A stretch of DNA of 51,831 bases from Planctomycetaceae bacterium (GTDB taxonomy: Bacteria; Planctomycetota; Planctomycetia; Planctomycetales; Planctomycetaceae), in contig JBBDNT010000301.1 of the NCBI GenBank assembly GCA_040877445.1, positions 4,622-56,452 of the forward strand. The letters are read 5' to 3'. A model generated the notes under the pieces. That model saw nothing but the letters and a program-made list of their open reading frames with translations. It did not search any database and was not told the origin of the DNA. Numbering within the stretch: the first letter of the stretch is position 1; every line of letters starts with the position of its first letter. A program made the translations under genes and the position numbers. Below are positions 4,092 through 47,268 of this stretch, one piece after another.

Positions 4092-7000
4092 CTATTCGCG
4101 CGGGCGGTCGGTGACCTTGGATGCGTTTTCGCCGCGCTTCTCGGCCAGCCGCTGCCGGTAGCGTTCGTAAAACCGCGTCTGGCGACTTTCCGGGGCGAAG
4201 GGACGGCCCGCGATGAAGACGGCCTTCACCTGCGACGACGGCTGCAACGGCGTGCCGTCGCCGATCAACAGGTTCGCCCGCTTGCCGACCGTCAGCGATC
4301 CGAGCGAATCCCCCAGGCCGACGATCTCCGCCGCCGAGAGTGTGACCGCCCGCAGCGCCTCTTCTTCCGGCAGGCCGAAGGCGACCGCCATCCCCGCTTC
4401 GAAGGGAGCGTTGCGGCTGTTCCAGGCGCTGTCCGAGCGGATGCAGAACTTCACGCCGGCCTCGTGCAGCCGACCGGGGTTCGCGTAAGGCGCGTCGAGC
4501 GGGTCGTGCTCGGCGGGAGGAACCATCACCGGGCCGACGATCACCGGCACGTCGCGCTTCTTCAGTTCGTCGGCGAGCTTCCACGCGTCGCGGCCCCCGG
4601 TGATGACGGGCTTCAGCTTCCATTTCTCGGCGAACAGCAGCGCCTCGGCGATCTGCTGCCGGGTGTACGCCTCGATGAACACCGGCTTCTTCGCGTGCAG
4701 GTACGGCCGCATCGCTTCGAGCCGCGGATCGACGACGCCGCCGTCGAAGTCGTCGCTCGCGGAATCGTCGCTTTCCGAGTCCGACTTGTTCGAACTTCTC
4801 TTCTCGGCGGCGGCGCGGACGCGGTCGTACTCCCGGGCCTGCTCGAAGAACTCCTCGAGCTGCTCGCGCTGCTTCTTCGCGTCCTTCCCCTCGGGCCAGC
4901 CGATGACGAGGCCGGCTTCGTATTCGAGGACCATTTCCTCGGCGGTCCAGCCGGCGAGTTGCACGGTCGAGGCCTGTCCGCCGATGAGTCCGCCGTTGGG
5001 GCGAATGAGGATGCTGGTGATGCCTCCGGCGCGGGCGGCGGGAATCAGTTCGGAATCGACATTGACCGCCACGCCGGCGCGGATATCCGGTTGCAGCAGG
5101 CCGCTTTCGGCGAAGTCGTGGGTTTCGCGCAAGCGGTCGATCTCGGTCAACCCGAGCGTCGTCCCGGCGTCGATCAGCCCCGGATAGACGTGCAAGCCTT
5201 TCGCGTCGATCACCTTCGCGTCGGTCGGGACGTCGACATCGTTGGATTTGCCGAGCGCGGCGATGTTCCCGTCCTCGACGACGAGCGTGCCCTTCTCGAT
5301 CACCGGTCCGTCGACGGGATGCAGCGTGGCGCCCACGATCGCATAGCGGCCGTTGGCGTGCGGTTCGAGATCGAGCTTCTTCTCGCGAACTTCGTCGGAT
5401 GCGAATTCGAGCGGCGGGGCCTGCTTCGAGCGTTCGCGCTGCTTCTCGCTCATCACGGTCGGCGCGCCTTCGCGGTGATAGTACACCTCGCCGCCGACGA
5501 GCGCGATTTCGCACCGCGAGAAGGTGCTCAGCGGATGGCCGTTGTAGATCGCCATGTCGGCGAGCTTTCCCGGTTCGATCGTCCCGAGCCGGTCGTGCAG
5601 GCCGAGCTCGCGGGCGGCGTTGCGGGTGACCGCCTGGATGGCGCGATCCGGCGGCATGCCTCCGTAACGGATCGCCTTGGCCGCTTCGAGGTTGAGATGC
5701 CGGATCAGCTCGGCGTTGTCGCTCTTGATGACGACGTTGGCGCCGGCCTCGTCGAGGAGGGCGGCGTTGTAGGGCGTGGCGTCGAACGCTTCGACCTTGT
5801 AGGCCCACCAGTCGGCGAACGTGCTGCAGCTCGCTCCGTGCGCGACGATCTCGGGAGCGATCTTGTACCCTTCGAGCACGTGCTGCAACGACCACACGCG
5901 AATGCCCAGATCGCGGGCGGTGCGCAGCAGCATCAGGATTTCATCGGCCCGATAGCAGTGGCTGTGGATGAATTTCTTGTGGTCGACGATGTCCGCGAGC
6001 GCCTCGAGCCGCAGATCGCGCCGCGGCGGAAGGACCGATGGCGACGCCGCCTTCTCACCACCGCCGTTGCCGCCGGCCGCCTTGGCTTCCGCGGCGCGCT
6101 TCTTCTCGGCGAGCTCGAAGGCGTTCCACTGGCGGCGGTAGTCGATCGCTTCGAGGAAGGCGCGGTTGAGCGTGGCTTCGACGCCGAGGCGGGTGTTCGG
6201 GAAGCGGTCGCGGCGTCCCTTCACGTTCTCGCCGAGCGCGAACTTCACCCCCTGCGGGGCGTCGTCGAGAATCTGCGCGCGCGCCGGCTCGCCGTGCTTG
6301 AAGCGGACGACCGCGTCTTGCCCGCCGATGACGTTCGCCGAGCCATGAAACACGCGGGCGGCAGTCGTCCCGCCCGCGAGCGCGCGGTACTGGGCGACGT
6401 CCGACGTGTCGATCGCGTCCTTGATGCGAACCTCCGGCACGACCGACTGCGTGTACTCGTTCACCCCCCCTTCGATCATGATGTGGCTGTGCGTGTCGAT
6501 GATGCCGGGCATCACGTAGCGGCCCGTCGCGTCGATGACGGCGATGTCTCCCTCCGGCCGCTCGACGTCTTTGCCGACCGCGGCGATCTTGCCGTCGCGA
6601 ACGACGATCGACGCCTCTTGCAGCGTCTCGCCCGTGCCGGTGATGACGGTGGCGTTCTTGATGAAGACGTTCCCCTTCGTCTCGAACGGGCGGCGCAGGC
6701 GATCGGCTTCGAGTTCGGTCGGCCACTCCGCTTGCGGTTTCGCGCCGTCGGAACCCTCTTCCGCGGCGATGTCGATGGTGACCGGGTTCTCGTCTTCCCC
6801 AGCGCCGTCCTTCTCATCATCGCGCTGCGCGCTCCACGGGGCCGGCGCGCCGAAGGGAGACTTCAACTCGCCCGCCAGTTTTCCTTCCGCGAGCTTGCCG
6901 GTGAACTTCAGATCGACTTCGCGATCCCCCGCGCCGATCGACACCGTGAGTTCGATGCCCGCGTCGTCCGCCTTTCCCGCGGCGACGCGGCCGTTCCCCT

Positions 7001-8594
7001 GTTCGCTGACGAAGCGGCCGGTGAGGCGGGCGCCGTCCTGCGACAGTTCGAGCGTTCCCGGCACCTTGCCCGAGGCCGATTCGATGACCACGTTCCACTT
7101 CCCGGCGACCTGAAGCGCGGGCTTCTCGCCCGGCTTCACCGGTTCCACCGGCTTGGCCGATTCGTTGTACTCGTACTGGCGTCCGTCGACGAACAGATGG
7201 CGGACCTTTGCCTGCTCGTGCTCCAGCGGCCCGGTGAGCACGACGACGTGCCCCGCTTTTTCCGCTTCGAGAGTCCCCAGTCGATGCTCGACGCCGAGCA
7301 TCGCCGCGGGGTTGGTCGTGAGCGCGGCGAGCGCGGCGTCGGCGGAAAGCCCGTGTTCGATCGCTGTGCGAACCGCTTCGAGCAGTTTCGCCGGATCATC
7401 GAGTCCCTGCGAGCCGAATGCGAACCGCACGCCCGCCTCTTCGAGCGCGGCGGCCGTTCCCACGCGCCGCTTCCAGCGGTCCAGTTCCTCCTGCTGCACG
7501 CGGACGGGAGGCTTGATCTCGGCGACGAGCTTGTCGGAGGCCGGCTGCCGTTCGATCTTCGGCTCCTTGCCGAAGTCCGCCTGCAAAACGACATCGACGT
7601 TTTCCTTCTTCAAGCGATCGACCGCGCGGTGCGCGTCGCGGGCGCCCCACAGCGTGGCGGCGATTTCGCGTTCGGCCGCGAAATCGAGGGCGCGGTGAAT
7701 GTCGTCCCGCGTGGTGACGGTGAACAGCGCGCGGCGCTCGCCGGAACGTACCTGTTCCAATGCGGCGAGCGCCTCGTCGAACACCGGCCGCTCGACGCCG
7801 GGCGTTCGCTGCTCGAACAGTTCGCGATGCAGCGCGTCGCGCTCGGCGTCGAGAAACGCTTGGCGGAGGTGAGCGGTCGTGCCCATCAGCGTCGAGGGAT
7901 ACTCGTTTCCGCCCGGCGCGTACAGGCGGAAGGCGGCGAGCGAGTCCGGCGCGATGACCGCCTCGCGGAGCGGAAGATCCTCCGTCGAAATCAGTGTTCC
8001 CGTGCCGGAGGCGATGCGTCCCGTCGGCACGACATGCGCCGCCGCGAAACCCGCCTTGCGGAACGCTTCGAGCTTCGCCCCTTCGCGCTTCAGTCCGTCG
8101 CGGACGGCGAACTCGGGCGTGAGCAGCCGGCGATTGTCCGGCGGAGTGGCCGCGAGAATGTAACGGCCGAAGTCGATGTTCCGTCCGGCGACCGGCGTGG
8201 GCCTCTTGTCGCCATCGACCAGCGCGCTCGTCCCCGCGTCGATGAAGGCGGCGTACACGACGTGCCCCTGCGCGTCGACCGATTGCGCATCGGCGGGAAC
8301 CTCGACTTCACCCGCTTTGCCGACCGCGACGATCACGCCGTCCCGAATGACGAGCGTTCCCTCGTCGATCGTTTCGCCAGGCCGCACGACGATCCGCGCC
8401 CCGGTGACCGCGAAGACACGGGGCGTGAATCCGACGATGCGGTCGGCGGCTCGCGGTGAATCGCCGCCGATCAGCCCCACGATCGCCGCCGCAACGAGCA
8501 CGAACGCGGCGCGGATGAAACCGGCGACCCGCGTATTCTTGGGTGCATCGAATTTCGTCCGGCGAAGACCGGTCGCGGAATGAGTCACGCGCAT
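4092..8594 (-). CDS. large multi-domain amidohydrolase-family protein with three tandem metal-dependent hydrolase modules, secreted or membrane-anchored
   Basis: I placed the start at the ATG at 8594 (MRVTHSATGL...), which is followed by the hydrophobic anchor AGFIRAAFVLVAAAIVGLIGG. Three modules begin with V(V/I)RDG.I.AVGK. The metal-binding motif PGIIDTHSHI is present, with HxH-like patterns in the other modules. An acidic Ser/Asp-rich linker sits near the C-terminal third. Confidence 0.75.
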   Translation of the reverse strand: MRVTHSATGLRRTKFDAPKNTRVAGFIRAAFVLVAAAIVGLIGGDSPRAADRIVGFTPRVFAVTGARIVVRPGETIDEGTLVIRDGVIVAVGKAGEVEVPADAQSVDAQGHVVYAAFIDAGTSALVDGDKRPTPVAGRNIDFGRYILAATPPDNRRLLTPEFAVRDGLKREGAKLEAFRKAGFAAAHVVPTGRIASGTGTLISTEDLPLREAVIAPDSLAAFRLYAPGGNEYPSTLMGTTAHLRQAFLDAERDALHRELFEQRTPGVERPVFDEALAALEQVRSGERRALFTVTTRDDIHRALDFAAEREIAATLWGARDAHRAVDRLKKENVDVVLQADFGKEPKIERQPASDKLVAEIKPPVRVQQEELDRWKRRVGTAAALEEAGVRFAFGSQGLDDPAKLLEAVRTAIEHGLSADAALAALTTNPAAMLGVEHRLGTLEAEKAGHVVVLTGPLEHEQAKVRHLFVDGRQYEYNESAKPVEPVKPGEKPALQVAGKWNVVIESASGKVPGTLELSQDGARLTGRFVSEQGNGRVAAGKADDAGIELTVSIGAGDREVDLKFTGKLAEGKLAGELKSPFGAPAPWSAQRDDEKDGAGEDENPVTIDIAAEEGSDGAKPQAEWPTELEADRLRRPFETKGNVFIKNATVITGTGETLQEASIVVRDGKIAAVGKDVERPEGDIAVIDATGRYVMPGIIDTHSHIMIEGGVNEYTQSVVPEVRIKDAIDTSDVAQYRALAGGTTAARVFHGSANVIGGQDAVVRFKHGEPARAQILDDAPQGVKFALGENVKGRRDRFPNTRLGVEATLNRAFLEAIDYRRQWNAFELAEKKRAAEAKAAGGNGGGEKAASPSVLPPRRDLRLEALADIVDHKKFIHSHCYRADEILMLLRTARDLGIRVWSLQHVLEGYKIAPEIVAHGASCSTFADWWAYKVEAFDATPYNAALLDEAGANVVIKSDNAELIRHLNLEAAKAIRYGGMPPDRAIQAVTRNAARELGLHDRLGTIEPGKLADMAIYNGHPLSTFSRCEIALVGGEVYYHREGAPTVMSEKQRERSKQAPPLEFASDEVREKKLDLEPHANGRYAIVGATLHPVDGPVIEKGTLVVEDGNIAALGKSNDVDVPTDAKVIDAKGLHVYPGLIDAGTTLGLTEIDRLRETHDFAESGLLQPDIRAGVAVNVDSELIPAARAGGITSILIRPNGGLIGGQASTVQLAGWTAEEMVLEYEAGLVIGWPEGKDAKKQREQLEEFFEQAREYDRVRAAAEKRSSNKSDSESDDSASDDFDGGVVDPRLEAMRPYLHAKKPVFIEAYTRQQIAEALLFAEKWKLKPVITGGRDAWKLADELKKRDVPVIVGPVMVPPAEHDPLDAPYANPGRLHEAGVKFCIRSDSAWNSRNAPFEAGMAVAFGLPEEEALRAVTLSAAEIVGLGDSLGSLTVGKRANLLIGDGTPLQPSSQVKAVFIAGRPFAPESRQTRFYERYRQRLAEKRGENASKVTDRPRE

Positions 8595-9534: not shown

Positions 9535-9947
9535 GAACCGTCCTCGATGCGAAAAAAAACGAACGCGCGCCGGCGACGCCCCGCGCCGGCCGGGCCAGAA
9601 CTTCCGCCGCCGAGGCGCGATTGTAACAAGCCGACGCCCCGGCGACAAAGGGACGCAAAGAATCCCGGCGGCCTCTGTCGCTCGTCCGCGAGCCGGCCTT
9701 TCCCGACCCGTTCCGCTCGATCGTTCCCGGCGACGACGACGCCCGAACAGGACGGCGGACGCGACCGGCATGATCGGCATATTCGGCATTACCGGGACAA
9801 TCTTAATAATCGACACGAGCCATGCGGTCGATAAAGTCTTACCGTGCGGATCTTCCGCCGGCAGCCCCCGCGTCGCGTCCGCTCGTCGGCGCCGGAACGC
9901 CGTCCATTCGGGAGTGAAGTCCGTCGAAAGAAATATGAAGGGTCGCC

Positions 9948-35411: not shown

Positions 35412-35717
35412 TCATGCGATCGTCCAAGGGACCGTGCGTGTCCAAGGAACCATGCGAGTCGTACCGCCCCCGGGCGGAACGGAAACGACTCGATCTCCAA
35501 CCCGGTCTCGAGCAAAAGAACCGAGGACCGGCAGGCCGGGGGCCGTGATGTCGTAGCACATGAGCGTGTCCTGCTCGCGAAGATAGAGTTTTCCGCCGCA
35601 GACGACCGGGTGCGCCCAACTGGGGGATTCAACGACCTCGGGACGTAGCGTTCCCTTCAACTGGTAGCGTTCGGGCGTCGCCGCGATCAACGCCACTTCG
35701 ACTGACTCCTCGGACAC
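35412..35717 (-). pseudogene. possible remnant of a PQQ beta-propeller gene (terminal blade only)
   Basis: The short ORF carries WAHPVVCGGKLYLREQDTLMCYDI, which resembles the last blade of a PQQ/BamB propeller. Compare GKLYVSMIDGRLTCLAG at the end of the 873..3872 gene. The remainder is low-complexity. Confidence 0.3.
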
Positions 35718-35893: not shown

Positions 35894-35994
35894 CGTCATT
35901 CCCGCGCAGGCGGGAATCCAGTAATCGCCAAGGCGGTTACCAATGGGATTACTGTCCGTGCATCGACTGGGTTCCCGCCTTCGCGGGAATGACG
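35894..35994. repeat. nested multi-hairpin element (three stem-loops enclosed by a 13-bp outer inverted repeat)
   Basis: Outer inverted repeat: cgtcattcccgcg at 35894-35906 pairs with cgcgggaatgacg at 35982-35994. Inner hairpin A at 35898-35917 is attcccgc-gcag-gcgggaat. Inner hairpin B at 35919-35954 pairs cagtaatc with gattactg. Inner hairpin C at 35972-35989 is ttcccgc-cttc-gcgggaa. The element lies between the ECF sigma gene stop (36035) and the PQQ remnant and giant-gene operon. Confidence 0.5.
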
Positions 35995-36034: not shown

Positions 36035-36613
36035 TCAGGACTGGACCTTGCGTTCGGCCAGTTTGCGGCGCGCCCGCGTGAGCACGGGGCCGATCGTGTT
36101 TTCCGGAATTCCCAATCCGGAACTGATCTCGCCGTACGACCGTCCTTCCAGATGAAACAGGCGGACGATCTCGGCGTCGGCGGCGGGAAGGACCTTCAAC
36201 AGTTGGTGAACTTCGTCGCGGTCTTCGATGCGCTTGAAATCGGACGGTTGCGTGCGGACCTTCTCGAGCGACGTCCGGTTCACCTGCACGTGCCCCAGCG
36301 CCTCGGCCATCTTGCGGCGCGACATCTCGCGCACTACGATCCGCCGGGCGACCACGGTCAGATACGTGGCCAGCGAACTGTTTCCGCGAAAGTTCCGCAG
36401 CACGGCGAAGTCGCGGGATACCAGCGTCGTGAAAATCTCCGCGCAGATATCATCCACGTCTTCGGGACGCACCCCCACGCTGCGCGCCTGGGCGGTGTGG
36501 TGGATCACATGCACGAACAACCCGATGAACCGATCGACGAGATCCTTCCAAGCGCCCGGTTCCTGGGCGAGACACCGCCGCAGCAGGTTGCGATCGATTT
36601 CGGTCAAGGCCAC
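36035..36613 (-). CDS. RNA polymerase sigma-70 factor, ECF subfamily
   Basis: The sigma-2 region is LVDRFIGLFVHVIHH...DVDDICAEIFTTL. The sigma-4 HTH is RLFHLEGRSYGEISSGLGIPENTIGPVLTRARRKL. I chose the GTG at 36613; the ORF extends to 36709. Confidence 0.7.
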   Translation of the reverse strand: MALTEIDRNLLRRCLAQEPGAWKDLVDRFIGLFVHVIHHTAQARSVGVRPEDVDDICAEIFTTLVSRDFAVLRNFRGNSSLATYLTVVARRIVVREMSRRKMAEALGHVQVNRTSLEKVRTQPSDFKRIEDRDEVHQLLKVLPAADAEIVRLFHLEGRSYGEISSGLGIPENTIGPVLTRARRKLAERKVQS

Positions 36614-36775: not shown

Positions 36776-37369
36776 TCAATCGCAGTCGCGGCACACCGTC
36801 CGGTCGGGCCGGGGTTCGTAGTCCGTCAGGTTTCCGCGGCGGTCGAACTCGAACGTGCAACAGCGATCGAGAGCTTCCTTGAGCAGCCTCCGGCCGCGTT
36901 GGATGCGGGATTTGGCTCCGGACAGCGAGAGTCCCAGCCTGTCCGCGACTTCCCGCCCCGGCACTCCCTCGATCTCCGCCAACCGGACCGCCTCGCGGTA
37001 CTTTTCGGGCAACTCGCGGATCAATCCCTCGAGCCACGATCCCGCCTCGTTCCGCAGATGTCCCACGCGATCCATCTCGGCGGCGGCCGGTTCCGTATCG
37101 GACAGTTCGACGGCGGATTCCGAGGTCTTGCGGTAGTGATCGACGATGACGTTGCGGGCGATGCGATGGACCCACGCCGCCAGGCGATCCGCATCGGCGA
37201 GCGCGTCGATCCCGCGGTGAATCCGCAGAAACGTCTCCTGCAGCAGATCCTCGGCGGCGTGGTCGTCGGCGACGCGGCGGCGGATGAACCGCCGCAGGTC
37301 GCCGCTCAATCGCAGCCACGCCGCATCAGTGGCCGGTCGTGCCGTCATGCGACGGCCTCCCGGCAGCAC
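36776..37369 (-). CDS. ECF sigma factor with C-terminal cysteine-rich extension (CorE-like candidate metal-sensing sigma)
   Basis: Sigma-2: EDLLQETFLRIHRGI...AWVHRIARNVIVDHYR. Sigma-4: LPEKYREAVRLAEIEGVPGREVADRLGLSLSGAKSRIQRGRRLL. An extra 28-aa tail, CCTFEFDRRGNLTDYEPRPDRTVCRDCD, carries a CC pair and a CxxC. Confidence 0.7.
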   Translation of the reverse strand: MLPGGRRMTARPATDAAWLRLSGDLRRFIRRRVADDHAAEDLLQETFLRIHRGIDALADADRLAAWVHRIARNVIVDHYRKTSESAVELSDTEPAAAEMDRVGHLRNEAGSWLEGLIRELPEKYREAVRLAEIEGVPGREVADRLGLSLSGAKSRIQRGRRLLKEALDRCCTFEFDRRGNLTDYEPRPDRTVCRDCD

Positions 37370-37803
37370 TCGCTCTGCGACGAACGATGATTCACCCCGT
37401 CGTCGTCGAGGACGACGTACGTCTCCCAGCGGTTTCCGTCCGGATCGGCCGCCCAGACCTTGTTCTGCACGGCATAGCAGCAGGCGACCCGCTCCTCGGT
37501 CCGGGTGGCGTATCCGGCGGCGGCGAGTCGGTCGGCGACCGTCCGAACCGCGTCGCTCGACTTGACCTGAATCCCGAAGTGAGCGATCGGGTCGGACGGA
37601 CCCGTTGCTCCGCCGGCCTCGTTCAGCGACAGGTTCACCGGCGGCTCGGCGACCTCGAACTTCGCGTAACCCGGACGGGTTTTCGACGGCCCCTGCCCGA
37701 ACAGCATCCGATAGAAGGCGACCGAGCGCTCCAAGTCGTTCACGGCCAGCCCCATGTGAATGCGGCTGTTCGTCTCGAATCGCACCGCGGATTCATGGCT
37801 CAT
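37345..37803 (-). CDS. VOC (glyoxalase/bleomycin-resistance/dioxygenase) family protein, ArsI/CadI-like with vicinal cysteines
   Basis: The N-terminal half has a glyoxalase-fold beta-alpha-beta pattern (HMGLAVNDLERSVAFYRMLFG ... HFGIQV). Vicinal Cys pairs VACCYAV and SECC lie near the C-terminus, as in ArsI/CadI-type metalloenzymes. Its stop overlaps the CorE-like sigma start by 25 nt. Confidence 0.6.
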   Translation of the reverse strand: MSHESAVRFETNSRIHMGLAVNDLERSVAFYRMLFGQGPSKTRPGYAKFEVAEPPVNLSLNEAGGATGPSDPIAHFGIQVKSSDAVRTVADRLAAAGYATRTEERVACCYAVQNKVWAADPDGNRWETYVVLDDDGVNHRSSQSECCREAVA

Positions 37804-38169
37804 GGTTCAGCTCCAAGTTCATCGTGGTTCACGATCGTGGTTCATGTCCGGCGGCTGCCGGCCCTTCCAATCATACAGACGAACGCGGGGCAAAAAGGAC
37901 GCGGAAAATCCCCGGCGCCGCGCGGTGTCGCGACGCCGGCGAATTGCCGTTGACGGGGTTCGCGAAACCGCCTATGGTTCGCCCCGCTTCGGCCGGGGCG
38001 ATCGCCTCCGGTCGAAGCAGCGGCCTGTCGGCCACTCTCTCTCGATGTTCTCCGCCGATCGCCGAACGACCCGCACACGTTGGTTCATTCATCGAAGCGC
38101 CGTCCCATTCCGAGCGGCACTTCGGCTGCACGTCTCCCCCGCAATTCGTGGTCGCGAAAGGACTCGACG

Positions 38170-38505
38170 ATGAGGAATCTCATTCTCCGAACGCTGTGCC
38201 TGGCCCTCATTTTCACGGCGTGTGGATGCTGTTGCCACGGCAGCCACCGGATGTGGCCGTTCTGCGGAACGAAGCGCTGCTTCGGCGGCGGATCGTACCC
38301 GGGTTACATCGGCCCCTCGACCGCCCCCTGCAATCCCTGCCCGACCGGCGCCTGCCCGCCGAGCGGCGGCGGCGCCGTGCCCTACTATCCCTCCGGCTCG
38401 TACCAATCGTACGACACGATTTCGCCGGTCTCCGGACCGGTTGCGTCGCCGACGTACTATCCAGCCTCGGCCATGGCGCCGATCGAATCGCTCCCGACGT
38501 ATTGA
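38170..38505 (+). CDS. small secreted/lipoprotein-like Cys-, Pro- and Gly-rich protein with a CGCCCH cluster
   Basis: An ATG at 38170 gives MRNLILRTLCLALIFTACGCCCHGSHRMWPFCGTKRCFGGG.... The signal peptide ends in a lipobox-like FTAC. The mature part holds 10 cysteines in about 50 residues, followed by a PYYPSGSYQSY-type low-complexity tail. GC3 is high and coding-like. Confidence 0.5.
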   Translation: MRNLILRTLCLALIFTACGCCCHGSHRMWPFCGTKRCFGGGSYPGYIGPSTAPCNPCPTGACPPSGGGAVPYYPSGSYQSYDTISPVSGPVASPTYYPASAMAPIESLPTY

Positions 38506-38620: not shown

Positions 38621-39727
38621 TCACAGCAGGTTGACGATCCGCTCGGCGAGTCCTTTTTCGCCGAGAACGACGTTGAGGTGTCCCGCCGAGGCGACCTTCT
38701 CGAGAACCTCCAGTTCCCGCAGCCGCATCAGCGTCGGGTTGTCGGCCAGCAACTTGGCCGTGTTGGCCTGGCTGCGCATCGCCGCCGTCTCCTCGCGGCG
38801 GGAGATGAGGTTGGCCTCGGCGGCCTTCTTCGCCTCCGTGACCTTGTTCATCAGGTCCTTCATGTCGCCCGGGAGGATGACGTCGCGGATGCCGGCCGAA
38901 ACGACCTGCAATCCCAGTTCACCCGCCCGCGCGCGAACCATCTCCTCCACCTCCCGCGCGATCGCGTCCTTGTCCGCGAGGAAGGCGTCGAGTTCCCGCG
39001 CACCGATCACGGCCCGCAGCGCCAGCTGCGCTTCGCGGTACAGCGCCTGGCGGACGTCCTCCGCCGCGCTCACCGCCTTCCGCGCATCGACGATGCGGTA
39101 GGTGACCACGGCGTTCATGCGGAGCGTGACCTTGTCCGCCGTCATGATCTCCTGACCGGCGACGTCGGACATGCTTTCCCGCAGGTCCACCTCGACCACC
39201 TTCGAGTCGGCCGCGTCCTTCCAGAACGCGTACCGGCCCGAAGGCAGCGTCTCGACGTACGCGCCGTCCACGAACAGCACGCCCAAGCGGTCGCGCTCGA
39301 CCGTGCAGACGTCGAGCACCCGGCTCACCAGCGGCGAACAGGCGATCGTCTTCAGCTCGTCGTGGACGAACCGCACCCGCCGCGCGTCGACGATCTCGAC
39401 CCGCACGTCGCGGAATCCGATCCAGTAGGCGTACAGTCCCTTCGGCAGGACGTGGCTGAAGCGGCCGTCGATCCAGACGAGCGCCCGCTCGTGGTCCTTC
39501 AGGTCGAGGACGACGGCGCGCTCGGCGAGCGCCCCCGACTTGACGATCACGTCGAGCTTCTCGTGGACGAGCCACGGATCGCGCTGCGAGACGACCTGCA
39601 CGCGGACCTTCCGCAGCGGGTCGAAGAAGACGTAACGACCCGCGCCGAGCAGACCCCGGAACTCCTCGTCCCGGAAGTACAGGCCGATCTCGTAGCTGCG
39701 GATCTTGACGCGGCGGAAGGGGAACAT
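38621..39727 (-). CDS. SPFH/band-7 domain protein (stomatin/flotillin-like)
   Basis: The N-terminal beta-rich region is followed by the band-7 core (TADKVTLRMNAVVTYRIVD...) and a long Ala/Glu/Arg coiled-coil tail (EAKKAAEANLISRREETAAMRSQANTAKLLADNP) typical of SPFH proteins. Confidence 0.8.
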   Translation of the reverse strand: MFPFRRVKIRSYEIGLYFRDEEFRGLLGAGRYVFFDPLRKVRVQVVSQRDPWLVHEKLDVIVKSGALAERAVVLDLKDHERALVWIDGRFSHVLPKGLYAYWIGFRDVRVEIVDARRVRFVHDELKTIACSPLVSRVLDVCTVERDRLGVLFVDGAYVETLPSGRYAFWKDAADSKVVEVDLRESMSDVAGQEIMTADKVTLRMNAVVTYRIVDARKAVSAAEDVRQALYREAQLALRAVIGARELDAFLADKDAIAREVEEMVRARAGELGLQVVSAGIRDVILPGDMKDLMNKVTEAKKAAEANLISRREETAAMRSQANTAKLLADNPTLMRLRELEVLEKVASAGHLNVVLGEKGLAERIVNLL

Positions 39728-40271: not shown

Positions 40272-40344
40272 CGGGTGGTACGGGAGTCGAACCCGTGACA
40301 GCCAGATTATCAGTCTGGTGCTCTACCCACTGAGCTAACCACAG
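40272..40344 (-). tRNA. tRNA-Ile (anticodon GAT), with an imperfect acceptor stem
   Basis: The reverse complement reads CTGTGGT-TA-GCTC-AGTGGGTA-GAGC-A-CCAGA-CTGATAA-TCTGG-CTGTC-ACGGG-TTCGACT-CCCGT-ACCACCC-G. The D-arm, anticodon arm (loop CTGATAA, anticodon GAT) and T-arm (TTCGA) are canonical. Positions 1-2 (C,T) do not pair with 71-72 (C,C). CCA is not encoded. Confidence 0.6.
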
Positions 40345-40820
40345 CCGATGCCATCCGGTTCCGAACCCAGTGAGGAACACGCGCCGCCAAATCGCCTGAT
40401 GACGAGGCGCCGCGCGCCGCTGGCCGAACGACACCGTCCGTTTGCCTGAATTTCCTCCTTTGACAGCCGTGGAACGGACGCACCGTCGGGCGAAATGGTT
40501 CGCGTCATCCCGACCATTCTCGACAATCATCCCGCAACTCCGCTCCGCGAGCGCCCCGTCATTCGACGTCCGGCGCATCCGGCGGGGTGCGGCAATCTTC
40601 ACTGGCGTGTGGCAAAAAGTCGGGTGGCGGGGGCGCTTCGCGCAGCGAAAGCCCCCGTCGCGCGCCACGGGGGCTTCCGCGTTGCGGAGCGCCCCCGCCA
40701 CCCATCGCCACAGAGATTGGCGTCGCCAGGAACTCTTGCCGCCCCATCCGGCGACCATCTTCGGTTCCGCCTTGATCCGGCGTTCCATGTCGTTTACGAT
40801 CGATGGTCGAGGCGAACGTC

Positions 40821-41219
40821 ATGACGGCCACTCTTCAACGAGCCTTTCTCTGCGTCGTCGTTCTGGTCTGTCCGCTGTGGTGCGGCGCCGGAGCGGCTGC
40901 CGGGCCGGATCCGCCGGCCAGCGGTCGCTGCTGTTGTTGTCACCACCCCGCGGCGCCGACCGGCCCGTCGCAACTTCCGCCGACGAACGATCACGACGAC
41001 TCCGCCTGCCAATGCTTCTGCGGCGGGGCCGTGGTCGACAAGGAAGCCGGTCCGCGGCTTCCCCTCGACGATGCCGGTCCGTTCGACGGTTCGATCGTCG
41101 CGGCGATCCTCGCGGATCGCAGCGGCACGCGGCTCGTTCTTCCCGAGCCCGCGACTTCCCGCGAGTGCGCACAACCGGGGCGCGCCGTCTGTCTGCGCGC
41201 GATGCGCTTTCTCTGCTAG
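40821..41219 (+). CDS. small secreted Cys-rich protein with a CCCCHH cluster
   Basis: An ATG at 40821 gives MTATLQRAFLCVVVLVCPLWCGAGAAAG, a signal peptide. The mature region carries GRCCCCHHP, then Pro-rich sequence and a second cluster CQCFCGG. It lies in a different frame from the long Arg-rich ORF 40442.., which I take to be an artefact upstream of 41369. Confidence 0.45.
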   Translation: MTATLQRAFLCVVVLVCPLWCGAGAAAGPDPPASGRCCCCHHPAAPTGPSQLPPTNDHDDSACQCFCGGAVVDKEAGPRLPLDDAGPFDGSIVAAILADRSGTRLVLPEPATSRECAQPGRAVCLRAMRFLC

Positions 41220-41368: not shown

Positions 41369-42532
41369 GTGTTTCGACTGCTCCCGTGGGAGTACGGCGT
41401 TCGCAACCTGATGCGCCGGCCCGTCCGCACGCTGCTGACGTTCGCCGGGCTGACGACGGTGATCGTGCTGATTCTCGTCGTCGCGGGATTCATCCGCGGG
41501 CTGGAGCGGTCGCTGGCGGTCAGCGGCGACCCGGCCACGGCGATCGTGTTCGGTCTCGGCATGGGCGAAAACCTCGAATACTCGTCGATCCCCATGCGGA
41601 CCAGCGATCTCGTCGCGGCCAGCGTCGGCGGCATTTCCGAACGGCACGGGCGGAAGTACGTCTCGCCGGAACTGTATCTCGGAACGGAAGTCGGCATTCA
41701 GGGACGGGACAAGCCGGGCTTTGGACTGGTGCGCGGACTGACGCCGGCCGTGTTGCTTGTCCGGCAGCAAGTCGAGATCGAAGCAGGCGCGTGGCCCAAG
41801 AGCGGCGAAGTGCTCGTCGGTCGAATGGCGGCCGTCAAACTCGGACTGGCGCGCGATGCGTTGCGAATCGGCGACGTGCTCGAGTTCGAAAACCGGCGGT
41901 GGCGGATCAGCGGGCTGTTCTCGGCCGGCGGGGCGACGTTCGAATCCGAAATCTGGTGCCGGCTGGATGAACTCCAGCAGGCGATGAAGCGGCAGGATCT
42001 GAGTCTGGTGGCGCTCACGCTCGCTCCGGGGGGGGACTTCGCCGATCTCGATCTGTTCTGCAAGGAACGGCTCGACCTGGAGTTGCAGGCGATGCGCGAG
42101 ACCGCCTACTACGACACGCTCCAGAAGGATTACCGTCCCGTGCGGATGCTCGCCTGGCTGGTGGTGCTGCTGGTCGCGGGGGCCGGAACGTTCGCCGGTC
42201 TCAACACGATGTACGGCGCGGTCGTGGGCCGCGTCCGCGAGTTGGCGACGTTGCAAACGCTCGGCTTCGTCCGCCGGGCGATCGTCGTCAGTCTGTTCCA
42301 GGAAGGACTGCTGCTCGCGGCGGCGGCGAGCCTGTTCGCCACGCTGCTGGCGGTGACGATTCTCGACGGGGCCGCCGTGCGGTTCACGATGAGCGCCTTC
42401 GCGCTCCGCGTGGATGAGGTCGCCGTGCTCATCGGCTGCGGAGCCGGTATGGCGATCGGCCTGTTGGGGGCGATTCCCCCGGCGATCCGCGCGATGCGGC
42501 AACCCATCGTCGAAGGATTGAAGGCGATTTGA
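41369..42532 (+). CDS. ABC transporter permease, FtsX/MacB-like family
   Basis: A GTG at 41369 gives VFRLLPWEYGVRNLMRRPVRTLLTFAGLTTVIVLILVVAG, the FtsX N-terminal signature (LRNL.RRP.RTLLT + TM1). A large periplasmic domain and three C-terminal TM helices follow. The upstream 309 codons of the ORF are Arg-rich non-coding-like sequence. Confidence 0.75.
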   Translation: MFRLLPWEYGVRNLMRRPVRTLLTFAGLTTVIVLILVVAGFIRGLERSLAVSGDPATAIVFGLGMGENLEYSSIPMRTSDLVAASVGGISERHGRKYVSPELYLGTEVGIQGRDKPGFGLVRGLTPAVLLVRQQVEIEAGAWPKSGEVLVGRMAAVKLGLARDALRIGDVLEFENRRWRISGLFSAGGATFESEIWCRLDELQQAMKRQDLSLVALTLAPGGDFADLDLFCKERLDLELQAMRETAYYDTLQKDYRPVRMLAWLVVLLVAGAGTFAGLNTMYGAVVGRVRELATLQTLGFVRRAIVVSLFQEGLLLAAAASLFATLLAVTILDGAAVRFTMSAFALRVDEVAVLIGCGAGMAIGLLGAIPPAIRAMRQPIVEGLKAI

Positions 42533-42597
42533 ATTCCAAGATTCTCCGTCGGAAGGAGGCCGACGCAATTAAGGGTTCCACAGAACTGAATTTGGAT

Positions 42598-42698
42598 GCT
42601 GGAGGCGTGTAAGACGGATTGGCAATCCTTCCAATGGTGATCGAGTCGGCAGAACGATCGACCTCCGGCGACGTTGATGCCCCACCGGCGGATTGCCA
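42598..42698. repeat. two copies of a palindromic GTAAGACGGATTGGCAATCCGTCTTAC-type element
   Basis: The sequence at 42598-42617 is gtaagacggattggcaatcc. The sequence at 42678-42698, cggattgccaatccgtcctac, is its approximate reverse complement. More copies lie at 45997-46016 and 51782-51796. Confidence 0.5.
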
Positions 42699-42761
42699 AT
42701 CCGTCCTACGGGCTACCCACGATTTCGAAACCGAATCTTCTACTCTCGAAAGGTACTCCCC

Positions 42762-43313
42762 ATGCAATGCTCGAAGAAGCTCATGCAGGTGAAATGGTTG
42801 GCCGCGCTCGCGATCGTCGCGGTGTTCGCCGGATGCAACCGCGGAACGACGGAGACTGCACCCGATCGAACTGACGCGAGCGAATCGAACGCCGACCGTG
42901 CCGAATTCGTGCTCGCCGACGAGCCGGACGGTGCGAACGACGTGATCGCCGCCCGCGAATCTTCATCGGACGGCGACGATGTGGTCGTCGTCGGTCGGAT
43001 CGGCGGCAGCGAAAACCCGTGGGTCGAGGGACGCGCGGCGTTCTCGATCGTCGATCGCTCGCTCCAGGCGTGCAGCGACATCCCCGGCGACGCCTGTTCG
43101 ATGCCGTGGGACTATTGTTGCGAGACCGACAAACTGCCGAAGGCGACCGCGCTCGTGAAGTTCGTCGATGCCGACGGCCAGCTCGTGAAGTCCGACGCCC
43201 GCGAACTGCTGGGGCTGAAGGAATTGCAAACGGTCGTCGTCCGCGGCAAGTCGCACCGCGACGAGAGCGGCAACCTGACCGTGCTCGCGAACGGCGTCTT
43301 CGTCCGCGAATGA
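42762..43313 (+). CDS. hypothetical lipoprotein
   Basis: An ATG at 42762 gives MQCSKKLMQVKWLAALAIVAVFAGC with the lipobox FAGC. The mature region is acidic and includes CSDIPGDACSMPWDYCCE. It sits between the permease and the HlyD adaptor in one orientation. Confidence 0.55.
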   Translation: MQCSKKLMQVKWLAALAIVAVFAGCNRGTTETAPDRTDASESNADRAEFVLADEPDGANDVIAARESSSDGDDVVVVGRIGGSENPWVEGRAAFSIVDRSLQACSDIPGDACSMPWDYCCETDKLPKATALVKFVDADGQLVKSDARELLGLKELQTVVVRGKSHRDESGNLTVLANGVFVRE

Positions 43314-43335
43314 GAGAGAGTGTGTCTTCGAATCC

Positions 43336-43405
43336 GTAGCGGAAGTCGCAAGACTTCCGACGCTCGCTCGGACGCTCTCGGAATTCTTGCGAATTCCGCT
43401 ACGTC
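43336..43405. repeat. composite REP-like element: two inverted 24-bp hairpin motifs (CGGAATTCTTGCGAATTCCGCTAC family), also resembling an ECF-type -35/-10 promoter
   Basis: The sequence at 43336-43359 is gtagcggaagtcgcaagacttccg. The sequence at 43379-43402 is cggaattcttgcgaattccgctac, followed by gtc. Each motif is an 8-bp stem with a ttgc loop. The two substitutions in the first copy are compensatory (cggaagtc/gacttccg). On the plus strand this reads GGAAT-N17-CGTC, 55 nt upstream of the HlyD start. Confidence 0.6.
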
Positions 43406-43460
43406 GATGGCGGCGTCAACGCATCACCACGGCTTTCGAAGACAGACTCGGAGGTGCTCC

Positions 43461-45068
43461 ATGCGTGCCGATGTCGATCTGTCGCAATTGGCGCTCGATC
43501 GCGGTCCGGGGCCGGCCATCCGGTCCCGGAGCCGCATCGGGTCGCGGTATGTCCTGCCGGGAGCGTTGTTGCTGGGCGTGTGCGGACTCGCGGTGTGGGG
43601 CACATGGAATCTGCTGTTCCCGCCGCGGGCGGTGACGGTCGTTCCCGTACACGTCAGCCGCAGCGCGATCCAGCGGGAAGGGACGCCGCTGTTTCAGGCC
43701 GCCGGCTGGGTCGAGCCGCGTCCCACGCCGATCCGCGTCGCCGCGCTCGCGCCCGGAGTGATCGAGGAACTGCTCGTCGTGGAAGATCAGGTGGTCGAGG
43801 CGGGGGAGCCGGTCGCCCGTCTTGTCCGGGAAGACGCCGAACTCTCTTACCGCCGGGCGCAGGCCGATCTCGCCCTTCGCCAGGCGGAAGTCGCCGAGAC
43901 CCGCGCGCTGTTGCAGGCGGCGGCGACGCGCCTCGATCAGCCGGTGCATCTGGAAGCCGTCGTCGGCGACGCGGAGGCCTCGCTGGCGAAGGTCGAGACC
44001 GCCCTGGAGACGATCCCGTCCGAAATCGACTCGGCCGTTGCGAAAGTCGAGTACGCCCAGGCCGACTACGATCGGCGCATCGCCGCCCGCGACGCGGTGA
44101 CGACTCTCATGCGCGAGGAAGGCCGAAGCGCGCTCGCGATTGCGCGAGCGAATCTGGAAGGACTGAAGCGTCGTCGAGTCGCGCTCGACAACGAGCGGAA
44201 GGCGCTCGCGGCGCGGCGCGACGCGCTCCGCACGCAGCTCGAATTGCTCGCCGACGAAATCGAAGCCCGCGACACCGCTTACGCGCGGCTGAAATCCGCC
44301 GAGGCCCGCGTCGAACAGGCCGAGGTGGCGCTGGCGGAGGCGAAGCTGCGGCTCGACCGCATGACCGTCCGCGCCCCGGTCGCCGGACGCGTGTTGAACC
44401 TCACCTCCGATCCCGGCACGCGGTTGACCGAGGGAATGGGAGACGCCGGCACCGAAGACATGAGCACCGTCGTCACCATGTACCGGCCGGAAAGCCAGCA
44501 GGTCCGCGTCGACGTGCGTTTCGCGGACATTCCTCATGTCGCGCTCGGCCAGCCGGTGCGGATCGAGAACCCGGCGGTGAAGGAACCGCTCAGCGGGCGG
44601 GTGTTGTTCATCAGCTCGCGGGCCGACATTCAAAAGAACACGCTGGAAGTGAAGGTCTCGATCGACTCGCCGCCTTCGGTGTTCAAGCCGGAGATGCTCG
44701 TCGACGTGACGTTCCTCGCGCCGGAGATCCTCGACGATGAATCCGAACCGTCGGAAGAGCTGCGGATCTACGTCCCGCAACGGTTGATCACGCGCGACGG
44801 CGACGCCGCTTTCGTATGGGTGGCCGATCAGTCGGAAGGCCGCGCCCGTCGCGTTTCCGTCGAACTCGGTGCGGCGAGCGGCGACGGGCTGGTCGAAGTC
44901 GCGTCCGGGCTGACGATCGCGAGTCGCCTGATCGCGGGGGGGCACGATGGACTCCGCGACGGCGACCGAATCCGCGTGACTGGCGAAGAGACCCTCTCGG
45001 AAGCCACGGCCCCGGCCGCCGAGCGCTCCCGCAACCCCAGCCGCTTTCCCACGGGAGACGCATCGTGA
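43461..45068 (+). CDS. HlyD-family periplasmic adaptor (membrane fusion protein)
   Basis: An ATG at 43461 is preceded by a GGAGG RBS. The product has an N-terminal TM anchor [16 protein letters not shown], a long Ala/Glu/Arg/Leu coiled-coil ([26 protein letters not shown] ... [31 protein letters not shown]) and a beta-barrel C-terminus. Its stop overlaps the next gene's GTG (GTGA). Confidence 0.8.
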
Positions 45069-45796
45069 CCGCACTCGTCCAGGTTCGCCACGTCGCCAAG
45101 CGCTATCACAAAGGGGGCGAAACGATCACGCCGCTCGACGGCGTCTCGCTCGACGTCGCGCAAGGGGAGTTTCTTTCGCTGATGGGGGCCAGCGGGACCG
45201 GGAAATCGACGCTGTTGAACCTCATCGCGGGCATCGACCGCCCGGACGAAGGAAGCATCGCCGTCGCCGGAACCGAAATCACCCGCCTCTCGCGCACGCG
45301 GCTGGCGCATTGGCGGGCGGCGAACGTCGGCTACATCTTTCAGACGCACAACCTCGTGCCGGTGCTCACCGCCTACGAGAACATCGAGCTGCCGTTGCTC
45401 TTGCTTTCGATGTCGCGAGCCGAGCGCCGCAAGCGCGTCGCCGTCGCGTTGGAAGCGGTCGGGCTGACCGACCGGGCGGACCATTATCCCCGGCAGCTTT
45501 CCGGCGGACAGGAGCAGCGGGTCGGCATCGGCCGGGCGATCGTGGCGCATCCCACGCTGGTCGTCGCCGACGAGCCGACCGGCGACCTCGACCCCGAAAC
45601 CTCGGAGCAGATTCTACACCTGCTGCGGCGGCTCAACGACGAACTCGGCATCACGCTGCTGATGGTCACGCACGATCGGGAGGCGGCGGGAATCGCCGAC
45701 CGGCAATTCCATCTCGATCAGGGCCGGCTGGTGGAATCGGGAATGGGAGATCGAAAATCAGAGATCAGAGATCCGGCGTTGTCATCGAACCGGTAG
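45065..45796 (+). CDS. ABC transporter ATP-binding protein (MacB/LolD-type)
   Basis: Walker A is [12 protein letters not shown]. The ABC signature is [14 protein letters not shown]. Walker B is [12 protein letters not shown], and the H-loop is VTHD. Confidence 0.85.
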
Positions 45797-46016
45797 GACG
45801 GAATTGTATTCCGTCCGCCAAGAAAACCGTTGCGTTTCGTGTTGCAGACGATGATCGGGAACGGCGACGATCGCGCATGTCTCACCGGCGGGCGGGGACG
45901 ACGGAATATAATTCCGTCCTACCCGCCCATGCGTCTCTCCACAAAATGAAACGTGAAAACGTACTACTGCCTCTATCAACATCGACGTCGTGGGAAGGAT
46001 TGCCAATCCGCCTTAC
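45793..46016. repeat. cluster of three related palindromic hairpin elements (GTAGGACGGAAT...ATTCCGTCCTAC and GGATTGCCAATCCGCCTTAC types)
   Basis: The sequence at 45793-45816 is gtaggacggaat-tgt-attccgtcc. The sequence at 45898-45921 is gacgacggaat-ata-attccgtcctac. The sequence at 45997-46016 is ggattgccaatccgccttac. All lie in the 330-bp gap between the ABC ATPase and the second permease. Confidence 0.5.
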
Positions 46017-46125
46017 ACGCTGCCACCGCAAATGCGAACTTGACGAGGTACTTCGGCATGATGCCTATCGCGCGCATTGACCGCTTTTGGCTGGCACTTG
46101 GCCTCTGACCTCTGGGAACCAAACA

Positions 46126-47268
46126 ATGCTCCGCTTCCTCCCCTACATCGCGAAGACGCTCTGGCGGCATCGCTCGCGGACGCTGTTGACCGTGAGCGGT
46201 TCGGCCGTGGCGTTGTTCGTGTTCTGCGTCATCGGCGCGATCCATGAAGGCATGCACGATCTGCGGACCCGGCAGGAGGCGGAGCAATCGCTGATCGTCT
46301 TCCAGGCGAACAAGTTCTGCCCCGCGACCAGCCATTTGCCGCAGGATTACGACGAGCAGATCGCACGCTTCGACGGCGTGCGCGACGTCGTGCCGATCCA
46401 GGTCTTCACCAACAACTGCCGGGCGAGTCTCGACGTCGTCGTGTTCTATGGACTGCCGGCGGCGAAGCTCCGCGCGATCCGCGATTTCGAGCTGACCGAC
46501 GGGAACTGGTCGGAGTTCGAGCGCAATCAGGACGCGGCGGTCGTCGGCCGGGCGGTCGCCGCGCGGCGGGGCATCCGCGTGGGCGACAAGTTCTCCATCG
46601 GCGACATCTCGACGGTGGTCGCCGGGATCTACTCGTCGGGCAATCCGGCCGAGGAGAATTACATCTACACGCACCTCGACTTCCTGCAGCGCCGCCGGGG
46701 GGCGGACTCGGTCGGTACGGTGACGCAGCATGAAGTGCTGTTGGCCGAAGGCATCGACGCCGCGGCGGTGGCCGAAAATATCGACGACCAGTTCCGCGGC
46801 GGCCCGGTCGAAACCGACACGCGGCCGAAGGGCGTCTTCCAGGCGAAAAGCCTCGGCGATCTCGCGCAGCTCATCGCGCTGTCGTATTATCTGGGACTCG
46901 CCTGCGTGGGGCTGGTGCTCGCGCTGGTGGCGACGACGACGCTGATGTCGGTCCAGGATCGCGTCCAAGAGCACGCGGTGTTGCAGACGCTCGGCTTTTC
47001 CGGCCCGCGGGTGTTCGCGCTCGTGCTGACCGAGAGCGTCGTGCTCGGCTTGGCGGGCGGCGCGCTCGGCGTGGGCGGGGCGTTCGTCGTCCTCGAGTCG
47101 ACGAGCCTCGCGATCAGCGCCGAGGCGGTCAGCGTCGCCTTTCAGGCTTCCTGGCGTCTCGCCGGCGTCGCCTTGTTGACGGCCCTCGCGACCGGCTTCC
47201 TCGCCGGCATTCTCCCCGCCTGGCAAGCCGCCCGCACCGAGATCGTCCCGGCGCTGCGGAATGCATGA
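46126..47268 (+). CDS. ABC transporter permease, FtsX/MacB-like family (second copy)
   Basis: An ATG at 46126 gives MLRFLPYIAKTLWRHRSRTLLTVSGSAVALFVFCVIGAI, the FtsX N-terminus plus TM1. A periplasmic domain and three C-terminal TM helices (LIALSYYLGLACVGLVLAL..., VFALVLTESVVLGLAGGALG..., LAGVALLTALATGFLAGILPA) follow. Confidence 0.75.
   Translation: MLRFLPYIAKTLWRHRSRTLLTVSGSAVALFVFCVIGAIHEGMHDLRTRQEAEQSLIVFQANKFCPATSHLPQDYDEQIARFDGVRDVVPIQVFTNNCRASLDVVVFYGLPAAKLRAIRDFELTDGNWSEFERNQDAAVVGRAVAARRGIRVGDKFSIGDISTVVAGIYSSGNPAEENYIYTHLDFLQRRRGADSVGTVTQHEVLLAEGIDAAAVAENIDDQFRGGPVETDTRPKGVFQAKSLGDLAQLIALSYYLGLACVGLVLALVATTTLMSVQDRVQEHAVLQTLGFSGPRVFALVLTESVVLGLAGGALGVGGAFVVLESTSLAISAEAVSVAFQASWRLAGVALLTALATGFLAGILPAWQAARTEIVPALRNA

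Follow-up and report, generated by a model that had tools for sequence, protein, structure and literature searches.

The locus discussed here carries a gene for an ECF sigma factor that continues beyond its sigma-4 domain into a short cysteine-rich tail, and the question it raises is what such a tail might sense and which genes would answer to it. In the first-pass annotation, the protein was taken for a candidate CorE-like sigma factor that would sense Cu, Cd or Zn and govern a metal-responsive regulon made up of its neighbours. The features of the 51.8-kb stretch of DNA that was analysed (the window) are collected in Table 1.

Table 1. Coordinates of the sigZ locus and of neighbouring features in the window
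Feature	Position	Strand	Basis or remark
REP-like palindromes, two, TTCCCGC-N4-GCGGGAA	35898..35991 (35898-35917, ~35971-35991)	-	downstream of second sigma gene
Second ECF sigma factor gene, 192 aa from GTG	36035..36613 (longest ORF to 36709)	-	TIGR02937 71.9 bits, Sigma70_r4_2
sigZ-family ECF sigma factor gene, 190 aa plus stop	36776..37348	-	TIGR02959 and Pfam
Cys-rich C-terminal tail of the sigZ product, residues 163-190 (CC, beta-hairpin, CxxC); candidate in-cis sensor	36779..36862	-	conservation and AlphaFold2 model
arsI-like gene, ArsI/CadI-family VOC metalloenzyme, 152 aa; first gene of the operon	37345..37803	-	NF041414, 5c4p alignment
SigZ-family ECF-type promoter of arsI-sigZ	37871..37908	-	PWM 33.9 bits; core pattern search
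Cys-cluster proteins, two, predicted secreted	38170-38505, 40803-41219	+	signal sequence, then CGCCCH and CCCCHH clusters
SPFH-domain gene	38621-39727
tRNA-Ile(GAT)	40272-40344	-	between SPFH-domain gene and second Cys-cluster protein
MacB/FtsX-lipoprotein-HlyD-ABC ATPase-FtsX gene cluster	41393-47268	+	headed by the Cys-cluster protein at 40803-41219

A SigZ-family sigma factor, probably of group ECF238

The open reading frame listed for this gene begins at a GTG and encodes 197 aa (36776..37369, minus strand). The true start of sigZ is almost certainly the ATG at 37348, with a predicted product of 190 aa, because a GGGAGG Shine-Dalgarno sequence sits 7 nt 5' of this ATG and because the 190-aa NCBI product (P0001) and the N-termini of 17 orthologues agree with it. 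The complete sigma-2/sigma-4 core claimed for the protein is borne out by Pfam, which places Sigma70_r2 (PF04542) at residues 14-76 and Sigma70_r4_2 (PF08281) at residues 106-156. These domains, a score of 78 bits against TIGR02937 (cut-off 42.9) and the ECF sigma factors that are its top PDB fold matches mark the product as an ECF (group 4) sigma-70 factor. It has 1606 sequence relatives at E<=1e-5, and the SigZ-type family comprises 368 representative clusters at E<=1e-30. On TIGR02959, the NCBIfam model for SigZ (cut-off 168.65), the protein scores 193.4 bits, residues 15-180 covering model positions 5-168 of 170, the tail included; the related model NF007215 gives 196 bits, under its own cut-off of 212. 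Membership of the SigZ family can be regarded as virtually certain.

According to the main text of the ECF reclassification, the former groups ECF24 and ECF44 are merged as ECF238, a group whose members carry a Cys-rich extension roughly 20 aa long and lack anti-sigma factors, and in which B. subtilis SigZ forms part of subgroup 9 and CorE2 of subgroup 15 (Casas-Pastor 2021, PMC7826278). From this published placement of SigZ, the window sigma is predicted to belong to ECF238 as well (PMC7826278, main text), and it has both a 28-aa tail with four cysteines and no anti-sigma neighbour. The absence of an adjoining anti-sigma gene, already remarked on for this locus, holds in the window beside sigZ and also among its relatives, since no anti-sigma-like gene is conserved near sigZ in 80 related loci. 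Its place within the SigZ family and ECF238 likewise sets the protein apart from those ECF sigma factors that depend on a separate anti-sigma, as the first-pass annotation had supposed.

Assignment to the CorE-like type, by contrast, could not be upheld. The feature that defines the CorE-like proteins is a CxC in the linker (PMC4937300; PMC8999054), which is restricted to the former ECF44 and missing in about 85% of ECF238 (PMC8999054). Only one of 140 SigZ-family representatives has a linker CxC, and the window sigma has none. The cysteines of its tail also depart from the compact CorE-type domain, for which the published motif descriptions are C-x4-C-x2-C-x-C in CorE and CC-x3-C-x2-C-x-C in CorE2 (PMC9023288), against CC-x21-C-x2-C with an intervening beta-hairpin here. 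Neither of the genes that typically accompany CorE-like sigma factors, for a P1B ATPase and for a cation-diffusion facilitator, stands beside the sigma gene. Because there is no Cys before residue 163, because the linker CxC is so rare in the family and because the spacing differs, the window sigma is placed within the non-CxC majority of ECF238. To judge from its sequence, it is CorE-like in the likely outline of its working and stands outside the CorE/ECF44 set.

The cysteine-rich tail

After sigma-4, the last 28 aa of the protein read CCTFEFDRRGNLTDYEPRPDRTVCRDCD, exactly as first reported, and contain its only cysteines (C163, C164, C186 and C189). All four are invariant across 18 close orthologues, in which the tail follows the pattern CCxFExDxRGNxxDxxPxPDRxxCxxC. 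Of the 140 family representatives, selected at no more than 50% identity, 135 have the CC pair, and at least two distal cysteines follow it in 125 of these 135, the other ten having one or none. The distance from the CC pair to the next cysteine is mostly 16-22 residues, while the distal cluster itself differs among relatives and may be CxxC, CC, CxC or CCCC. The conservation on which the earlier reading of the tail had been made to depend is thus confirmed, and the conserved Cys tail is a family signature of SigZ-type sigma factors.

An AlphaFold2 model of the window sigma was built from 110 sequences, with a mean pLDDT of 88.7. In this model, the final sigma-4 helix (residues 142-163) is followed by two strands (164-168 and 174-179), the three blocks having pLDDT values of 93, 89 and 78, respectively. 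The CC pair is situated at the very end of the helix, and the beta-hairpin and then the CxxC come after it. Helix 142-163 is presumably the -35 recognition helix, as the general architecture of sigma-4 would have it. A fold search among solved structures gave no structural precedent for the tail hairpin and matched ECF sigma cores only. The tail is also devoid of histidine, and the HxxxCxxC signature of zinc-binding anti-sigma (ZAS) domains is therefore absent from it.

The arsI-sigZ operon and its promoter

Directly upstream of sigZ lies a gene for a VOC-family metalloenzyme that scores 151 bits against NF041414, the ArsI/CadI model (cut-off 116), and matches T. curvata ArsI (PDB 5c4p) at E = 4.6e-33. 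CadI-type relatives, which are cadmium-induced, fall under this same NF041414 model. In the alignment with the T. curvata enzyme (TcArsI), residues H16, H75 and E127 correspond to the Fe(II) ligands Q8, H65 and E117, and C108-C109 to the arsenical-binding pair C98-C99 (residue roles from PMC6138428); a second CC pair is formed by C146-C147. Of 30 sigZ-linked orthologues, 28-30 retain the Fe-site and arsenical-site residues and a CC pair near the C-terminus. With the family model, the Fe(II) triad and the vicinal Cys pair of an ArsI C-As lyase all present, and with all five functional residues kept, the gene is predicted to encode an ArsI-type C-As lyase.

An overlap between the sigma gene and an ArsI/CadI-like gene with two CC pairs had been recognized correctly, but it had been assigned to the wrong end of the sigma gene. 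The VOC stop codon is joined to the sigZ ATG as ATGA, preceded by GGGAGG as ribosome-binding site, whereas the stop codon of the sigma gene overlaps nothing. Since it is the start of sigZ that overlaps, the VOC gene is the upstream gene of the operon. Reviews describe arsI as occurring within ars operons, and ars genes as being under ArsR control (PMC6205960, PMC11868830). The window has an ECF-type promoter instead; relatives of ArsR, ArsC, Acr3 and ArsB were found nowhere in its 51.8 kb.

The -35 element of this promoter is ccGCGTCCttttt, with GCGTCC at 37897-37902, and is separated by a 15-nt spacer from the -10 element tCGTCTgta, with CGTCT at 37877-37881, which ends 73 nt 5' of the arsI ATG. 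Transcription is predicted to begin about 6-8 nt past CGTCT. The site at 37906(-) has a PWM score of 33.9 bits, against a maximum of 13.4 bits in 20 shuffles, and no other strong site exists in the window. The core by itself is expected 0.49 times in a sequence of this length, so that a single match to it is not significant. The next best match, at 9660(-) and about 125 nt upstream of infA, has a good -35 element (TTTGCGTCCCTTT) and a poor -10 element, and is probably due to chance because its 12.7 bits fall within the range of the shuffles.

The pattern GC[GA]TC[CT]-N15/16-CGT[CG]T is located 54-99 nt before the VOC start codon in 29 of 31 loci, and the family consensus reads tTTGCGTCCTTT...tcCGTCTnTa, a bipartite TTGCGTCY-N15/16-CGTCT. 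In a relaxed form, the motif adjoins sigZ in about 60 of the 80 related loci, where it precedes arsI, arsM, sigZ itself or the next gene. Over these loci, the core is 54-fold denser in the sigZ-proximal zone of the same strand (56 sites in 164 kb) than elsewhere (12 in 1907 kb). An autoregulated ECF sigma would be expected to have just such a CGTC-type -10 element and a promoter ahead of the operon that encodes it. We infer that SigZ reads this promoter because motif and sigZ co-occur; an arsI-sigZ operon with an autoregulated promoter is very probable.

Folding of the 5' leader in the window is no better than that of shuffled sequences (z = -0.83). A small hairpin, GGCYG-N3-5-CAGCC, occurs 10-25 nt past the -10 element in Planctomycete arsI leaders, namely in the window (37848-37861, minus strand) and in L002, L003, L004, L006 and L009, while in Binatia loci an inverted repeat, CGTCT-N8-AGACG, overlaps the -10 element instead. 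Each is a possible operator or 5' stabilizer, and covariation over the six sequences is weak.

Gene neighbourhoods in 80 related loci

The related loci, 80 in number and limited to one genome per species, carry relatives of the window sigma at 40-64% identity and span more than ten phyla, including Planctomycetota, Binatia, Verrucomicrobiota, Nitrospirota, Acidobacteriota, Chloroflexota, Bacillota and Proteobacteria. An arsI-like VOC gene stands directly 5' of sigZ and on the same strand in 30 of them. In 28 others, sigZ is adjoined by arsM (arsenite methyltransferase), identified by NF008823 at 296-370 bits against a cut-off of 263. Novipirellula rosea JCM 17759 (L014) is a cultured bacterium with the arsI-sigZ operon, and Cohnella laeviribosi DSM 21336 (L080) has the arsM-sigZ pairing; sigZ is also present in complete genomes such as OZ244203.1 and the Binatia chromosomes. 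Overall, arsI or arsM is paired with a Cys-tailed sigma and the conserved promoter in about 58 of the 80 loci, and several of the remaining 23 contain ArsC, Acr3, ArsB, ArsR, a MIP channel, a PF03773 permease or small Cys-repeat peptides. No neighbour other than arsI and arsM is conserved in the 80 loci, and no P-type ATPase or cation-diffusion gene occurs among the conserved neighbours.

On a tree of the sigma factors, the arsI-linked and the arsM-linked proteins form two large clades, each extending across several phyla. Because there are two such clades, the pairing is best explained by a few ancient associations that were kept, and not by dozens of independent events. The Cu, Cd or Zn signal originally proposed fits this evidence less well: since arsI and arsM are the conserved partners, with ArsC, Acr3, ArsB or ArsR at some loci, arsenicals rather than these metals are indicated.

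One locus, L003, has a gene for a 563-aa MerT/MerP-like and CopZ-like fusion (5620-7311) directly 5' of its promoter-arsI-sigZ unit, and a divergent ArsR-ArsC-MIP channel cluster lies beside this fusion gene.

Other genes near sigZ in the window

A second ECF sigma gene next to sigZ had been reported and was confirmed (Table 1). It has no relatives beside sigZ in the 80 other loci and is present on this contig only, which rules out a conserved role for it, whether as partner or as regulator. The stretch that separates it from sigZ has no terminator-like site, folding again being no better than in shuffles (z = -0.45), and the second gene may for this reason be co-transcribed with sigZ.

The neighbourhood on the other side was thought to place two secreted Cys-cluster proteins and an ABC efflux system within about 4 kb. 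The two Cys-cluster proteins are indeed there, but the ABC system starts more than 4 kb away. Neither Cys-cluster protein has a Pfam or NCBIfam match, the two show no similarity to each other, and they have no relatives near sigZ in the other loci; the ABC genes likewise have none adjoining sigZ elsewhere. A metal regulon comprising these genes is contradicted by the family promoter, which occurs once in the window, before arsI-sigZ, and by the lack of sigZ linkage of the CCCH and ABC genes at other loci. The local regulon is therefore rejected, the PWM having given no further site when run over all of the window.

A proposed arsenic-responsive circuit and its alternatives

What is established directly is that the protein is a SigZ-family member with a conserved tail, that its gene forms an operon with arsI behind a conserved promoter, and that arsI and arsM are linked to sigZ family-wide. 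From this we lean towards an autoregulated arsI-sigZ operon in which the Cys tail would act as the sensor and a trivalent arsenical as the signal. Taken separately, a sensory role of the tail is fairly probable, and an arsenical as its signal has slightly better than an even chance; we infer both what the ligand is and which way the switch works. The wider suggestion, put forward tentatively and at a little under even odds, is that the SigZ family at large senses trivalent arsenicals directly, through a gating S2/S3 site formed by the CC pair and one or two distal cysteines.

Under this proposal, SigZ, having no anti-sigma factor, would be inactive or weakly active at the basal level. Binding of As(III) or methylarsenite to two or three of the tail thiols would switch the sigma factor between its inactive and active states, much as Cd/Zn switches CorE2, with the ligand on the CC pair and the distal cysteines altering the C-terminal end of the recognition helix. 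RNA polymerase bearing SigZ would then read the TTGCGTCY-N15/16-CGTCT promoter, leading to production of ArsI and, by translational coupling of sigZ as the second gene, of more SigZ, which would boost its own synthesis; the second ECF sigma might perhaps be produced as well. The output would be the cleavage of toxic organoarsenicals by ArsI. As(III) or methylarsenite is the most likely ligand because the conserved outputs act on exactly these species, and because known arsenic sensors use a CC pair and a third Cys at helix ends. Of the two arsenicals, MAs(III) needs just two thiols, and As(III) sensors have a vicinal CC pair and a third Cys at the ends of helices (PMC11868830). Several things count against the proposal: the window has no arsC, acr3, arsB or arsR; a CC pair and a CxxC around a hairpin also resemble a structural zinc knuckle; the distal cluster varies, with one or no distal cysteine in 10 of 135 representatives; the linkage to arsI and arsM goes back to a few old associations; and sigZ of B. 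subtilis is not known to lie beside ars genes.

The reading first given to this locus, of a CorE/CorE2-type Cu, Cd or Zn sensor in control of a local regulon that takes in the VOC, CCCH-protein and ABC efflux genes, now appears improbable. It can draw on the inclusion in ECF238 of CorE2, which is activated by Cd and Zn through its Cys-rich tail (PMC4937300; main text of PMC7826278) and whose Cys domain likewise opens with a CC pair (PMC9023288), on the CadI in the name of the VOC family and on the MerTP/CopZ fusion just upstream at L003. For the window locus taken alone, Cd would be possible because the ArsI/CadI family includes a cadmium-induced member. However, the linker CxC is absent and the Cys spacing is different; the targets are arsI and arsM, and the conserved neighbours include no P-type ATPase or cation-diffusion gene; and the CCCH and ABC genes lack the family promoter and are not conserved with sigZ.

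There is a small chance that the tail is instead a structural Zn(Cys)4 knuckle that stabilizes sigma-4, control being exerted by an unlinked anti-sigma, by proteolysis or by another regulator of the promoter. The CC pair and the CxxC flank a confidently modelled beta-hairpin in the manner of a zinc ribbon, the four cysteines are invariant in close orthologues, and the small hairpin or inverted repeat after the -10 element in several lineages is a possible operator. Yet a purely structural Zn4 site would not usually show such wide variation in the number and spacing of its distal cysteines, and the related tails of CorE, CorE2 and OrbS have a sensory role. Without any input, moreover, a positively autoregulated ECF sigma would be bistable and uncontrolled; arsI and arsM are the only conserved neighbours in the 80 loci. 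A general thiol-redox or electrophile switch working through a disulphide, as in the zinc-binding anti-sigma factors, seems quite improbable. Redox activity is classically associated with vicinal and CxxC cysteines, and AhpD-like and flavoprotein genes stand beside some family members, but the outputs are arsenic-specific enzymes and not thioredoxin or thiol-repair genes, and a tail without histidine has no HxxxCxxC.

Relation to known systems and significance

Among characterized proteins, CorE and CorE2 of Myxococcus xanthus (former ECF44, now ECF238) are, like the window sigma, ECF factors without an anti-sigma, and theirs is a regulation in cis by a C-terminal Cys-rich extension to which a thiophilic ion binds. 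CorE2 shares with the window sigma the CC pair that opens the Cys domain and, by the main text of the reclassification, the same broad group as SigZ (PMC7826278). Apart from the tail geometry and the essential linker CxC that the window sigma lacks, the differences are that CorE2 is not autoregulating, whereas the promoter of the window family precedes the sigma factor's own operon, and that CorE and CorE2 target Cu or Cd/Zn transporters, whereas the SigZ-linked targets are arsI or arsM. B. subtilis SigZ (TIGR02959, a model that the window sigma also passes; ECF238 subgroup 9) has C-terminal cysteines and no anti-sigma according to the same main text (PMC7826278). For that protein, only two C-terminal cysteines and no known signal or regulon are reported, against four cysteines and an arsI operon in the window.

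OrbS of Burkholderia cenocepacia is another ECF sigma that senses a cytoplasmic ion by means of its own C-terminal Cys cluster (PMC9023288). It differs in belonging to another ECF group, in the motif C-x2-C-x3-C-x5-C, in having siderophore targets and in its mode of action, Fe(II) inhibiting the binding of core RNA polymerase. The role proposed for the window sigma is that of the ArsR-family As(III)/MAs(III) repressors (R773, AfArsR, CgArsR and ArArsR), the accepted regulators of ars, arsM and arsI, which bind through two or three cysteines and often have a CC pair at a helix end (PMC11868830). They are not sigma factors but repressors of the winged-helix type that come off the DNA, and the window has no arsR.

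Part of this picture is already known: ECF238 tails have been published as metal sensors, and the gene is annotated as SigZ. The pairing of sigZ with arsI and with arsM, the shared promoter, the distinct Cys geometry and the arsenic signal that they imply appear to be undescribed. Full-text searches found no literature linking SigZ or ECF sigma factors to arsenic, arsM or arsI, and the main text of the ECF reclassification makes no mention of arsenic, a methyltransferase or a glyoxalase (PMC7826278).

The pairing of arsI or arsM with a sigma factor and its own promoter, in the window and in about 58 of the 80 loci, contrasts with the picture of control by ArsR repressors. If the tail binds arsenicals, SigZ would become the first example of direct metalloid sensing by a sigma factor, and a function would be given to the SigZ clade, the bulk of ECF238, whose sole characterized member is the orphan SigZ of B. 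subtilis. Such binding would also make the sigma factor and its promoter available to arsenic biosensors as a compact, orthogonal pair. More broadly, the proposal, if true, would mean an ArsR-independent, sigma-based arsenic control of demethylation in the arsI clade and of methylation in the arsM clade across more than ten phyla, with a bearing on how soils and sediments switch on arsenic methylation and demethylation.

Additional observations

In some relatives, a SigZ-type promoter precedes genes for metallothionein-like peptides of 57-84 aa that consist almost entirely of CC repeats or Cys clusters (L007; L010; L011, 6950-7144; L030, 11715-11969; L038, 6308-6541). The peptide gene sits either just before sigZ or before a gene for a 425-434 aa flavoprotein with faint similarity to ArsO.

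In the window, the two REP-like palindromes downstream of the second sigma gene may mark the end of the transcript or act as a stabilizer, and they create a spurious ORF with the peptide 'IPACAGMT'. Further along, a 101-aa ORF at 35412-35717(-) has similarity to a PQQ/beta-propeller protein in its C-terminal blades alone and may be a gene fragment, situated between the gene for a 1212-aa protein and the sigma genes.
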